DNA of 64,000 nt from Octopus vulgaris (Eukaryota): NCBI GenBank assembly GCA_951406725.2, contig OX597818.1:115630001-115694000 (forward strand). The letters run 5' to 3'. The position numbers were made by a program, and so were the translations under genes. This document shows positions 32,703 to 39,415 of this stretch, piece by piece (position 1 is the first letter of the stretch; each line of letters starts with the position of its first letter). The notes beneath the pieces are model-generated. The model saw only the letters and a program-made list of their open reading frames with translations, searched no databases and had not been told where the DNA came from.

Positions 32703-33655
32703 ATATATATATATATATATATATATACATATATATATATATATATATATATATATATATATATATATATATATATATATATATATACATAATATATATA
32801 TATATATATACATATATATATATATATATATACATAAATATATATATATACATAAAATATATATATATATATATACATAAATATATATATATACATAAAT
32901 ATATATATATATATATATATATATATATATATATATATATATATATATATATATATATATATATACATAAATAATATATATATATATATATATATATATA
33001 TATATATATATATATATATATATATATATATATATATATATATATATATATATATATATATATATATATATATATATATATATATATATATAATATATAT
33101 ATATATATATATACATAAATATATATATATATATATACATATATATATATATATATATATATATATATATATATATATATATATATATATATATATATAT
33201 ATATATATATATATATATATATATATATACATATAATATATATATATATATATATACATATATATATATATATATATATATACATAAATATATATATATA
33301 TATATATATATATATATATATATATATACATATATATATATATATATATATATATACATATATATATATATATATATATATACATATATATATATATATA
33401 TATATATATATATATATATATATATATATATATATATATATATATATATATATATATATATATATATATATATATATATATATATATATATATACATATA
33501 TATATATATATATATATAATATATATATATATATATACATATATATATATATATATATACACATAATATATATATATATATATATATACATAAATATATA
33601 TATATATATATACATAAATATATATATATATACATAAATATATATATATATATAT
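32703..33655. repeat. (TA)n array, segment 1
   Basis: TA run with recurring CATA, CATAAATA, CATAATA and TAATA interruptions. Confidence 0.95.
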
Positions 33656-35899
33656 CCTTAAATCCTTAAAAATGTTTTAGCCCGAAGGCCGCGGCCATGC
33701 TGGGGCACCACCGCTGAATGAGCTACACTAGTTTGTGAATCCACCTCTGATACGTGGCACTTGATCAACAAGGGAGTTCGATGCTGCTGCCCGCATCCGT
33801 GTCTCCTGTCGTGAGGTAGGTTCATCTGGGACTCCCAACAAGAAGAGATCCAGTTTAGTTTTAAAGAAACCCACATCCACACCATGTAAGTCTCTCAGGC
33901 ATTTAGGGAGGATGTTAAAGAGCTGTGGTCCTCTGAAACCCAAGCTGTTGCAGTATCTGGACCTGTATTTTGATGGTGATGTTGGAATCCTTGGCACCAC
34001 GCAGCGGCGCCCCGTTCTGCGGTTGGAGTAACTTTGAATGCCAAAGTTTGGGACAAGACCCTCCAGGATTTTCCAGATGTATATCACTGCATATCTCTCC
34101 CGCCTCCGCTCCAGGGAGAAGAGGTTTAATACCTTCAGTCTTTCCCAGTAGCTGACATTTTGCATTGAGACGATTTTCTTTGTGTAGCTTCTCTGAGTTG
34201 CTTCGAGTTCTGCTGTTTGTTTTATATTGTGTGGTGACCAAAGTTGGGAGCAGTAGTCCAAGCGGCTGAGGACAAATGTTTTCCATAGGACCATCAGTGT
34301 CTCCTTCTCTCTTGTTCTGAAAGTTCGGAGAATCCATCCAGCTAGCCGTCTGCATTTTATCACCAGATTAGCAATATGCATTTGGAAAGATGCATCATTG
34401 CTCATGTCAATGCCCAGGTCACGCACTGATTTTGACTCAGGGATTGCAATTCTTCCTGGGCCAGTGTATCCAGTCTTCACGTCATTTACCTTTGTGTGCC
34501 AGTAGCGCAGGGCCTGGAACTTACCTGCATTAAACTGCATGTTGTTGTCCTCAGCCCACCTGTATATTGTGTCCAGCTCATGTTGCAGATGCGCAATATT
34601 TTCAGGGTTTTGTATTGCGTGGGAGACTTTTGTGTCATCTGCATAGCTAGCAAGGGTGGTCATCGTAGCAACTGAAGGCATGTCTGAAAGGGCCACTATG
34701 AACATCAGTGGCCCCAAGACAGTGCCCTGTGGGACACCGCTTGTTATTTGCGTTTCCCTGGAGGTGGCTCCATTGCTCACAACTGCCTGTTTTCTGTCTT
34801 TTAGGAAGTTGTGCAGCCACTCTCCAAGTTTCCCGCCTATGCCGAGACCACGCAGTTTGTGACAGATCATACCATGGTCGACTTTATCAAAGGCTTTTGC
34901 AAAGTCAAGATATATTACATCCACATTTGAGCCATTTAGTAGCTGTTTCAACACCCAGTCATAGTGTTGCAGGAGCTGTGTTAGGCAGCCTCTACCTGGT
35001 CGAAATCCATGCTGGGTGTCAGACAGTAAGTCATTTTCTTCAAGGAACATGATTAGTTTCTTACGGACTATTCGTTCCATGACTTTGCTGATGTGTGAGG
35101 TCAGAGAGATAGGCCTATAATTTTTAGCATCTGCTCTGCTACCTCCCTTATGGATAGGGCATATTACCCCCTCTTTCAGTTTGACTGGGAGCTTACCACT
35201 TGCAAGAAAGCTCTGAAAAAGAAGCTGTAGCGGTTTTGCAAGGGCTCGTTTGCACGATTTGAGAAGGATCGCTGGGAATCCATCAGGTCCAGCAGCTGAG
35301 TTTGTGTCAATCTCATCAATGGCTAGTGTGATATCATCTTCTTCGATGTTGATGTACTCAATTTTTGTCTCTTTGGCCGCTGGTAAAGTGGCAAAGAATT
35401 CTTCTGGGTTGTTTACTTGCCTGTGTCCTAGAGGTGTAGTGAACACACTTTGGAACTGTTCGTTCAGTATTTCACTTATCCTCGTGGGATTTCCTGTGAG
35501 AGAGCCATCTTTTTGGAAGAGAGGTCCTATTCTCTGGTGCACTGTGGCTGTCTCTTTGGCAAACTTAAAGAAAGCTTTAGGGTTTGATTTTATATTTTCT
35601 ATTACCCAAGCTTCTTTATCTGCTCTCTCCTTTTCATGGGACTGATGTAGACTTTTCTCAGTTTCCATTAGCATTCTTTCGAGCCGAGACTTCTCACCAC
35701 TTTTGGTGTGCTTGCTCAGGCGGTTTGCAATCCTTGTCCGTCGTCTCATAAGAATCCTCCTTTCTCTAGGGATCCTGTTTTTATTCTTGTGTGTGCTGGC
35801 CCTGCACATTGGGACATATTTGTCACATATGGCTTGTATTATGGACATGAAGTGTTTGTGTTTCATGTTTATGTCCGGTGTGGAGAGACATTCAGGCCA
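33656..35899 (-). mobile_element. CR1-group non-LTR retrotransposon, 5'-truncated, inserted in (TA)n
   Basis: RT-bearing ORF, short 3' UTR with ggtggtgccccagcatggcc + cUUCGg hairpin and (TTTAAGGA)2 tail; TA repeats abut both ends. Confidence 0.95.
33728..35899 (-). CDS. LINE ORF2 portion (linker + reverse transcriptase + C-terminal domain, 723 aa; no start codon or endonuclease)
   Basis: Uninterrupted frame with [69 protein letters not shown] motifs. Confidence 0.9.
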
Positions 35900-37415
35900 T
35901 ATATATATATATATATACATATATATATATATATATATATATATATATATATATATATATATATATATATATATATATATATATATATATATATACATAA
36001 TATATATATATATATATACATATATATATATATATATATATATATATATATATATATATATATATATATATATATATATATATATATATATATATATATA
36101 TACATAAATATATATATATATATACATAAATATATATATATATATACATATATATATATATATATATATATATATATATATATATATATATATATATATA
36201 TATATATATATATATATATATATATATATATATATATATATATATATAATATATATATATATATATATATATAATATATATATATATATATATATATATA
36301 TATATATATATATATATATATATATATATATATATATATATATATATATATATATATATATATATATATATATATATATATATATATATATATATATATA
36401 TATATATATATATATATATATATATATATATATATATATATATATATATATATATATATATACATAATATATATATATATATATATATATAATATATATA
36501 TATATATATATATATATATATATACATAAATATATATATACATAAATATATATATATATATATATATATATATATACATATATATATATATATATATATA
36601 CATACATATATATATATATATATATATATATATATATATATATATATATATATATATATATATATATATATATATATATATATATATATATATATATATA
36701 TATATATATATATATATATATATATATATATATATATATATATATATATATATATATACATAAATATATATATATATATATATATATATATATATACATA
36801 ATATATATATATATATATATATATATATATATATATATATATATATATATATATATATATATATATATACATAAATATATATATATATATATATATATAT
36901 ATATATACATAAATATATATATATATACATAAATATATATATATATATATATATATATATATATATATATATATATATATATATATATATATATATATAT
37001 ATATATATATATATATATATATATATATATATATATATATATATATATATATATACATATATATATATATATATATATATATATATATATATATATATAT
37101 ATATATATATATATATATATATATATACATATATATATATATATATATATATATATATATATATATATATATATATATATATATATATATATATATATAT
37201 ATATATATATATATATATATATATATATATATATATATATATATATATATATATATATATATATATATATATATATATATATATATATATATATATATAT
37301 ATATATATATATATACACACACATAAATATATATATATATATATATATATATATATATATATATATATATATATATATATATATATATACATACATATAT
37401 ATATTTATACATATA
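35900..37415. repeat. (TA)n array, segment 2
   Basis: Same interruption vocabulary and polarity as segment 1. Confidence 0.95.
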
Positions 37416-37617
37416 GAAGTCTTTGGACAGATTCCTTCAAGAAATCCCGGATAAACCCCCTACACCCGGATATGTCTCTGTAAACAATAACTCTCTACTT
37501 GAGTGGGCCATAGTGCCCAAATTCTGACTTGAAAGACTTCACCAGGTGGTGCTATTAAGTTAGACATGGCCTGGGCCAATAATGGCCGAAACCTATCAAA
37601 GTATCAAAGTATCAAAG
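37416..37617 (+). mobile_element. 3' end of a second, distinct CR1-group LINE inserted in (TA)n
   Basis: [36 protein letters not shown] (37417-37527) parallels [15 protein letters not shown]...NSLVDQV of the first LINE; 3' UTR ggtggtgc...catggcc, hairpin ggcca-ataa-tggcc, gaaac, (TATCAAAG)3. Confidence 0.8.
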
Positions 37618-39415
37618 TATATATATATATATACATAAATATATATATATACATAAATATATATATATATATATATATATATATATATATATATATATAT
37701 ATATATATATATATATATATATATATATATATATATATATATATATATATATATATATATATATATATACATATATATATATATATATATATATATATAT
37801 ATATATATATATACATATATATATATATATATATATATAATATATATATATATATATATATATATATATATATATATATATATATATATATATATATATA
37901 TATATATATATATATATATATATATATATATATATATATATATATATATATATATATATATATATATATATATATATATATATATATATATATATATATA
38001 TATATATATATATATATATATATATAATATATATATATATATATATACATATATATATATATATATATATATATATATATATATATATATATATATATAT
38101 ATATATATATATATACATATATATATATATATATACATAAATATATATATATATATACATAAATATATATATATATATACATAATATATATATATATACA
38201 TATATATATATATATATATATATATATATATATATATATACATATATATATATATATATATATACATATATATATATATATATATATATATATATATATA
38301 TATATATATATATATATATATATATATATATATATATATATATATATATATATATATATATATATATATATATATATATATATATATATATATATATATA
38401 TATATATATATATATATATATATATATATATATATATATATATATATATATATATATATATATATATATATATATATATATATATATATATATATATATA
38501 TATATATATATATATATATATATATATATATATATATATATATATATATATATATACATAAATATATATATATATATATATAAATATATATATATATATA
38601 TACATAAATATATATATATATATACATAATATATATATATATATATATATATATATATATATATATATATATATATATATATATATATATATACATAAAT
38701 ATATATATATATATACATACATATATATATATATATATATACATAATATATATATATATATATACATAAATATATATATATATATATATATATATATATA
38801 TATATATATATATATATATATATATATATATACATAATATATATATATATATATATATATATATATATATATATATATATATATATATATATATATATAT
38901 AATATATATATATATATATATATATATATATATATATATATATATATATATATATATATATATATATATATATATATATATATATATATATATATATATA
39001 TATATATATATATATATATATATATATATATATATATATATATATATATATATATATATATATATATATATATATATATATATACATATATATATATATA
39101 TATATACATAAATATATATATATATATATATATATATATATATATACATAAATATATATATATATATATATATATATATATATATATATATACATATATA
39201 TATATATATATATATATATATATATATATATATATATATATATATATAATATATATATATATATATATATATATATATATATATATATACATAATATATA
39301 TATATATATATACATAAATATATATATATATATATACATAAATATATATATATATATACATAATATATATATATATATATATATATATACATAAATATAT
39401 ATATATATATATATA
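37618..39415. repeat. (TA)n array, segment 3
   Basis: Same interruption vocabulary and polarity. Confidence 0.95.

Follow-up and report, generated by a model that had tools for sequence, protein, structure and literature searches.

A (TA)n array holding two LINE insertions in Octopus vulgaris and a genome-wide preference of CR1-group-like LINEs for TA repeats

Several retrotransposons without long terminal repeats (LTRs) target microsatellites: Dong inserts into (TAA)n, Waldo and Mino into (AC)n, and Koshi into (TTC)n. Long interspersed nuclear elements (LINEs) of the CR1 group are, to our knowledge, generally regarded as lacking a target sequence; a preference for (AAT)n is reportedly noted in Repbase for certain decapod Kiri families. 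In the available text of one survey, target-specific LINEs belong mostly to the early-branched, Tx1 and R1 groups, to which the HERO and Togen (TG)n microsatellite cases are added, and the CR1 group is not listed (PMC4640811). The (TA)n repeat is a known target of DNA transposons, namely, MuTAnT in Medicago, Micron in rice and TAFT in maize, as far as the accessible part of the source goes (PMC4486113), and CR1-L3 of snakes is described, in the text available, as seeding microsatellites (PMC8303610). The repeat annotation of O. vulgaris lists 13 recently active CR1 families, and the word "target" is absent from its main text (PMC13282606). Here, we describe a window of 64,000 nucleotides of O. 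vulgaris DNA (contig OX597818.1, positions 115,630,001 to 115,694,000 of the forward strand), in which a giant (TA)n array at positions 32703 to 39415 holds copies of two LINE families, A and B, and we compare these families throughout the genome with D, a sister of A, with a CR1-type control family, C, and with an RTE-clade family, E.

The features of the window that matter here are as follows.

32703..33655, no strand: left (TA)n segment, target DNA (Tandem Repeats Finder [TRF]; longest perfect run, 119 nt)
33656..35899, minus strand: family A LINE copy, 5'-truncated, the 3' 2,244 nt of an element of ~5.6 kb (sequence match)
33728..35899, minus strand: remnant of open reading frame 2 (ORF2), stop-free, 723 aa, reverse transcriptase (RT) and C terminus (translation; RVT_1 in the full ORF2)
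33656..33727, minus strand: family A 3' untranslated region (UTR), predicted stem-loop and (GGATTTAA)n tail into the array
35900..37415, no strand: middle (TA)n segment (TRF; longest perfect run, 189 nt)
37416 (or 37415)..37617, plus strand: family B1 LINE 3' end, 5'-truncated, (TATCAAAG)3 tail
37618..39415, no strand: right (TA)n segment (TRF; longest perfect run, 291 nt)
25239..25617, plus strand: 3' end of control family C (CR1-type), (AACT)n tail, outside the finding

An earlier note, made from the letters of the window alone, had described one TA array with two LINEs inside it, and each part of that description is borne out. TRF calls (AT)n at 32703-33655 and 35899-39415, and the variant units CATAAAT, CATAAT and CATAT are common to all three segments with the same polarity (C on the plus strand, no G); because units and polarity are shared, we read the segments as one array interrupted twice. 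The 2.2-kb minus-strand LINE, with its 723-aa stop-free ORF2 reproduced by translation, is 99.8% identical over the 3' 2,244 nt to a full-length family A copy (L211; labels in L denote our loci), and 5' truncation has removed its endonuclease part. The plus-strand piece of 200 bp is the 3' end of a distinct LINE family, as claimed: it is 100% identical over the 3' 203 nt to a B1 copy (L119) and 86.7% identical to B2. TA stands directly at four of four insert junctions, and the 8-mer tails, (GGATTTAA)n for the A insert and (TATCAAAG)n for the B1 insert, run into the array. The predicted fold of the family A 3' UTR has a free energy of -23.2 kcal/mol, a value without a shuffle control. At the genome average, 4.27 kb of TA is expected to hold 0.02 copies of A and 0.10 copies of B; the presence of two inserts in one array is not chance at that average, yet it is unremarkable given the TA preference described below. 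Elsewhere, an A-B pair is present at 5 of 60 A loci. Arrays in 400 kb of background sequence reach 1,061 nt at most, versus 6.7 kb in the window as assembled. An (AGAT)46 array and, after it, an 18-mer repeat lie 500 nt to the right of the TA array (window 39910-40264).

Copy numbers were counted genome-wide (2.8 Gb) as exact 3'-end pattern matches, and all are lower bounds: at least 1,151 for A, at least 2,959 for B (whose subfamilies B1 and B2 are ~85% alike), at least 3,433 for D, at least 2,377 for C and at least 555 for E. Families A, B and D together account for >7,500 matches. These families have a constant 3' end, variable 5' truncation and no LTRs, and their 3' tail units are 8-mers (A and B1), a 10-mer (B2) and CAAT (D). 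Exact A 5' ends are found 21 times, and nine of these loci reach the 3' end within the retrieved stretch, at a length of 5.0 to 5.6 kb; four of the nine have an uninterrupted ORF2 of ~1,039 codons. Full-length A copies differ by a median of 1.25% in pairwise comparisons, so family A is young. The control family is of similar age (copies 92 to 100% identical to the reference copy), and A copies with and without TA flanks do not differ in age (P = 0.88). Full-length A copies (L159-L179) start exactly with a 10-nt motif similar to the YY1 site that opens human L1, and a long 5' UTR rich in pyrimidines comes next.

We scored a junction as TA-flanked when (TA)5 starts within 20 nt of it. The background is 400 kb taken from 40 fixed positions, in which 5.2% of positions satisfy this rule and 3.8% of the sequence lies in (TA)5+ tracts. 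Flank counts for A, C, D and E are 30-locus samples, the first 30 along contig C1, and genome-wide tail patterns are for B1 only. TA flanks the 3' end in 26 of 30 B copies and in 22 of 26 copies of another B1 sample (48/56 after removal of 4 repeats of earlier loci), in 15/30 A copies (16/30 under a looser tail rule), in 34/40 A copies that are identical over the last 300 nt, and in 16/30 D copies. The control, C, is at background (1/30), and E is at 9/30, a count in which two loci that look like one duplicated site (L193 and L195) are each included. Genome-wide, 1,431 of 2,023 B1 tails (636 + 795; four-unit tails and variant arrays uncounted) run directly into TATATA, compared with 16 to 35% expected from a tail match of 2 to 3 nt. 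The 5' junctions are TA-flanked in 12/25 A, 25/39 B (15/23 + 10/16), 8/18 D, 7/22 E and 3/25 C copies. Inspected by eye, 18 of the 21 5' ends of full-length A copies adjoin at least 4 nt of alternating TA, and the remaining three adjoin a TA array in which one letter varies. When both flanks are considered together, copies with TA on both sides, the 5' side only, the 3' side only and neither side number 15/6/4/10 (of 35) for A, 19/2/11/3 (of 35) for B and 1/2/0/22 (of 25) for C, and insertions into TA occur in both orientations.

Based on these counts, we conclude that the TA preference is real and genome-wide in the young families A, B and D and is at least 10 times what chance provides. It is a preference rather than strict specificity (A, ~50 to 85%; B, ~86%): copies with no array on either side (10/35 in A and 3/35 in B) set these families apart from the near-exclusive target use of R1 and Tx1 specialists. 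The suggestion of the earlier note that the two families may target (TA)n is supported. The flanks of genomic copies put A and B far above the 5.2% background on both sides, with the CR1 family at 25239 at background. The control family often joins at CATAT or CATG and almost never in arrays (1/30, which is under even a 2-nt TA model). Family E (L121:5184-7154, L180-L209) is also found in (TAA)n, (AG)n and (TGTA)n tracts. Recurrent non-LINE repeats that start directly after TA arrays (L015, L023, L209, L245, L293) are possibly TA-targeted DNA transposons or miniature inverted-repeat transposable elements.

The TA tract precedes the insertion. An abundant short interspersed nuclear element (SINE) with an internal TA tract was seen in its empty form 12 times, and four A or B copies (L148, L035, L050, L415) split this tract, with the variant letters of the tract kept. 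TA lies upstream of 21 of 35 copies in A and 21 of 35 in B. At non-array sites, matches of A and B that resemble target site duplications (TSDs) are 2 to 5 nt long, no longer than those in mismatched-pair controls, and because such duplications are of chance length, the long upstream arrays are not TSDs. The upstream TA, the lack of TSDs and the split SINE tracts make it unlikely that seeding of the repeat by the element, or misassembly, is a general explanation. With four contig runs aligned to one locus (L102), no empty allele was found among the 15 joints listed (293 further ones lie outside this list); two contigs cross its 5' junction by ~20 letters only and are not used as evidence.

Other observations concern the same families. 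A tandem run of five B1 3' ends, all pointing the same way, lies within 11 kb (G000:C1:119860503-119871506), and four of the five are directly followed by TATATA. Four ultra-short B1 copies (L014, L042, L050, L058) have an identical 5' junction at which added letters complete a perfect 8-bp hairpin, which suggests either recurrent fold-back of nascent cDNA or a small nonautonomous derivative. Another B-like LINE family adjoins a D copy (L387:3937-4536). The 3' ends of D and A resemble that of abundant SINEs (L119:1200-3130, L269-L298; window 5952, 24620, 28085 and 53375), and judged from this resemblance the A/D lineage is likely the partner LINE of these SINEs.

The protein domains identify A and B1, by sequence, as non-LTR retrotransposons of the apurinic endonuclease (APE) type. 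Pfam Exo_endo_phos(_2) and RVT_1 are above cutoff in ORF2 of both; the Pfam families of ORF2 are endonuclease and RT only, with no further domain such as RNase H, and the catalytic motifs of both enzymes are intact in full-length copies. A PDB sequence search with ORF2 returned L1, R2 and group II intron RTs only. The RT of A is 78% identical to that of D, 46% identical to that of B, 38 to 40% identical to an avian CR1-like protein and to family C, and 29% identical to RTE. In an RT tree made without named Repbase references, in which deep forks are poorly fixed and the bootstrap has not converged, A, D and B fall inside a 100/99 clade of 29 rows that excludes C and the avian CR1-like protein; A, D and an Argonauta protein form one clade and B lies in another. 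Monophyly of A, D and B is neither supported nor rejected (approximately unbiased test, p-AU = 0.059). The earlier note had called the two LINEs related but distinct members of the CR1 group. The two share a type of ORF1, and 46% RT identity and the p-AU value leave sister status without support; as to the group, the domains, the tail and the lack of a clear TSD fit, but the RT tree does not fix the clade. We call these families CR1-group-like, a placement that rests on domain structure and motifs. Named homologues are from Octopus sinensis, O. vulgaris and Argonauta hians. Relatives in a metagenome scan are mostly distant LINEs (25 to 48% identity); TA runs accompany 3 of 80 loci, and the scan is uninformative about the lineage outside octopods.

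The ORF1 of these families (300 to 426 aa) seems to represent a type not yet described in LINEs. Its N terminus matches Pfam Myb_DNA-bind_4 in five of five proteins tested (A, B1, B2, D; best E value, 1.2e-6), with the A scores under the curated cutoff, and the Myb/SANT-like domain is followed, as read from the sequences, by one or two fingers of the CCCH type and by a C-terminal motif common to these proteins. An AlphaFold model of the N terminus (pLDDT, 82.5) is a three-helix bundle whose top structural matches are SANT, Myb, TEA and GT-1 DNA-binding domains with moderate scores (Z, 7.0 to 7.8). Foldseek gave nothing at an E value of ≤0.001, a PDB sequence search with ORF1 gave nothing significant, and the ORF1 of family C has no Pfam match. 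ORF1 relatives number 38 among 1.84 billion representatives; of 8 that were looked up, 3 have names, and these are octopus proteins. A survey of ORF1 in 448 elements contains the words Myb, SANT and CCCH 0 times in its main text (PMC4120745). The esterase-type ORF1 of canonical vertebrate CR1 was not found here. Zenon, which the accessible text defines by no ORF1 and a poly(A) tail (PMC13343379) and which is rare in cephalopods according to the part of the source at hand (PMC10294476), is ruled out by the presence of ORF1 and the absence of a poly(A) tail.

How much sequence is read can be estimated from the flanks. When insertion is modelled before k alternating TA letters, the share of junctions counted as TA-flanked is 16% (k = 2), 32% (k = 3), 52% (k = 4), 76% (k = 6) or 90% (k = 8). 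The four flank classes, in the order used above, are then predicted at 37/10/15/38% (k = 4), 54/9/22/15% (k = 6) and 64/5/26/5% (k = 8), compared with 3/3/3/92% for random insertion. The observed classes fit a k of ~4 for A, a k of ~6 to 8 for B and random insertion for C. Recognition of only ~4 to 8 nt of alternating TA thus fits the flank pattern, and with (TA)5+ tracts occupying 3.8% of the background, so short a preference suffices for the microsatellite bias. Pairing of the tail with a TA tract reaches at most 2 nt in A and D and 3 nt in B and E. Tail microhomology alone predicts ~5/30 for A and D and ~9/30 for B and is rejected (P = 3e-6 for A, 3e-6 for D and 6e-10 for B), but it does fit the RTE family E (9/30).

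We hold with moderate confidence that A and B LINEs enter pre-existing (TA)n, likely through an endonuclease that reads a short TA run, together with pairing of the tail. The steps of target-primed reverse transcription (TPRT) are established. The APE-type endonuclease of A and B would nick a short run of ~4 to 8 alternating TA bases, and the nicked strand, paired with TA or TAT in the RNA tail, would then serve as the primer for reverse transcription. Such a preference would send from half to nine-tenths of insertions into microsatellites, and a 6.7-kb array could in this way collect two. We infer that the preference belongs to the endonuclease rather than to breaks or to a tether formed by ORF1.

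Several results weigh against this reading. Arrays that hold insertions exceed the site-weighted background in length (downstream median, 86 versus 37 nt; P = 1e-5; pool of 16 A, 26 B and 4 D copies), and B ends lie near A ends 6 times, versus 0.47 expected under the TA model. Long arrays and A-B clustering point to hot arrays (breaks, cruciforms or open chromatin) or to expansion after insertion. Ten of 35 A copies, as noted, have no array on either side. A copies of 39 to 54 nt are less often TA-flanked than longer ones (3/12 versus 15/18; P = 0.002), a deficit that counts against the simple model because that model does not predict it. Older D copies are weakly TA-flanked (2/10 versus 14/20). 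In the A and B endonucleases, the putative hairpin loop, as read from the sequences, is short, and site-specific R1/TRAS endonucleases have an extended loop. The long occupied arrays, the A-B clustering and the weak flanking of very short A and older D copies leave room for breaks or cruciforms in long arrays, for postinsertion expansion and for an ORF1 tether. The short A copies (12 of 30 A loci, L137-L156) end just upstream of the 3' stem-loop.

The rival that survives best is that long (TA)n arrays extrude cruciforms or break, that LINEs capture the ends or the structure, and that the endonuclease senses shape or is bypassed. The approximately 2-fold excess in the length of occupied arrays, A-B co-occurrence ~13-fold above the prediction from TA content, the enrichment of the RTE family E (9/30) and the failure to find TSDs are all consistent with it, and breaks at TA repeats are reportedly documented in other systems. 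We nevertheless consider it unlikely. Family C, similarly young, is at background, so arrays are no general sink; many A and B sites are tracts of 6 to 30 nt, which are too short for stable cruciforms; and D ends were not found close to A or B. The earlier note had also raised priming on breaks at TA cruciforms: the overrepresentation of longer arrays speaks for this, but a short motif explains the flank classes and cruciforms are not needed.

Somewhat less likely again is a tether, in which the Myb/SANT-like domain of ORF1 binds TA-repeat DNA and holds the ribonucleoprotein there while the endonuclease is relaxed. This would make A, B and D an octopod CR1-group LINE lineage whose ORF1 guides the retrotransposition complex to (TA)n microsatellites. 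The domain is found in all five ORF1 N termini tested and is modelled as a three-helix bundle resembling DNA-binding domains, the control ORF1 lacks a Pfam match, SINE-type 3' ends, which would move without this ORF1, are TA-flanked in only 3/14, and a tether would explain the bias toward long arrays as well. However, the correlation is one lineage versus one control, the A scores fall under the Pfam cutoff, Z values below 8 are common for small helical domains, and the SINEs compared are older. SANT domains often bind protein rather than DNA, and the domain may instead be an RNA chaperone or an oligomerization module. If the tether were true, it would be the reading of DNA by an ORF1 protein that selects the target of a LINE, and the octopus TA arrays would have received, and been broken up by, thousands of guided copies.

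Insertion at random with later purging of copies that lie outside TA tracts, or an assembly error across the TA repeats, is very improbable. TA tracts are neutral DNA, a few loci adjoin N gaps, and the junctions in the window are known from the assembly, not from reads; against this, family C, of similar age, is unbiased, the same pattern is present at no fewer than 1,431 loci, tails are family-specific, truncation points vary by locus, and the A sequence is present at a share of at least 0.90 in 19 runs with 7 organism codes (two of them a possible DNA source). Least probable of all is that the tail or the RT makes the (TA)n, as for CR1-L3 in snakes, which would suit the B copies with TA on the 3' side only (11, versus 2 on the 5' side only, of 35) and the TA/TAT in the tails but is largely refuted, since it predicts a 3'-only repeat with 5' TA at ~5% (seen in 21/35 of A and of B), the 3'/5' asymmetry is predicted by the target model, bisected SINE tracts retain their own variant letters, and the tails are 8-mers, not TA.

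Families with a graded TA preference (A, B and D), a nontargeting control and intact copies in one genome make a system in which the origin of target preference in APE-type LINEs can be studied, with the endonuclease, tail pairing, DNA structure and an ORF1 tether as candidate sources. In a TA-rich genome, a preference for 4 to 8 nt mimics microsatellite targeting, which bears on LINE-microsatellite associations interpreted as seeding. An enzyme that favours TA tracts would also be of interest for safe-harbour insertion. Microsatellite-preferring LINEs are known; for this group and a (TA)n target, we found no report in the literature searched (Repbase or Dfam entries, subscription journals or supplements could hold one), and the ORF1 is unusual.

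PIF/Harbinger elements, whose ORF1 is reportedly of the Myb/SANT type, are alike in having such an accessory protein and differ in being DNA transposons. TRE5, with its ORF1-tethered targeting, is a precedent for guidance by ORF1, but what it is tethered to is a host protein and not a microsatellite. R1- and Tx1-clade elements (APE type) and HERO and Togen (restriction-like endonuclease type) are, like A and B, TPRT elements that enter multicopy simple repeats, as far as the available text describes them (PMC4640811); A and B differ from them in being CR1-group-like, in using (TA)n in both orientations and in having a preference in place of near-absolute specificity. CR1-L3, in the portion of the source available, shares with A and B CR1-type ends beside microsatellites (PMC8303610), whereas the repeat at A and B copies is older than the insertion and borders it on both sides. 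MuTAnT, Micron and TAFT have the same (TA)n target, TA on both flanks and a minority of copies in AT-rich nonarray sites, according to the accessible text (PMC4486113), but they are cut-and-paste plant transposons with terminal inverted repeats, and A and B are animal LINEs with an RT and an endonuclease. The CR1-group LINEs (canonical CR1, Zenon, L2, Crack, Daphne and Kiri), as the parts of the sources at hand present them, share with A and B an ORF2 with APE and RT, a short-unit 3' tail, 5' truncation and no clear TSD (PMC13343379, PMC4120745); what distinguishes A, B and D from them is an ORF1 with a Myb/SANT-like domain and one or more CCCH-type fingers.

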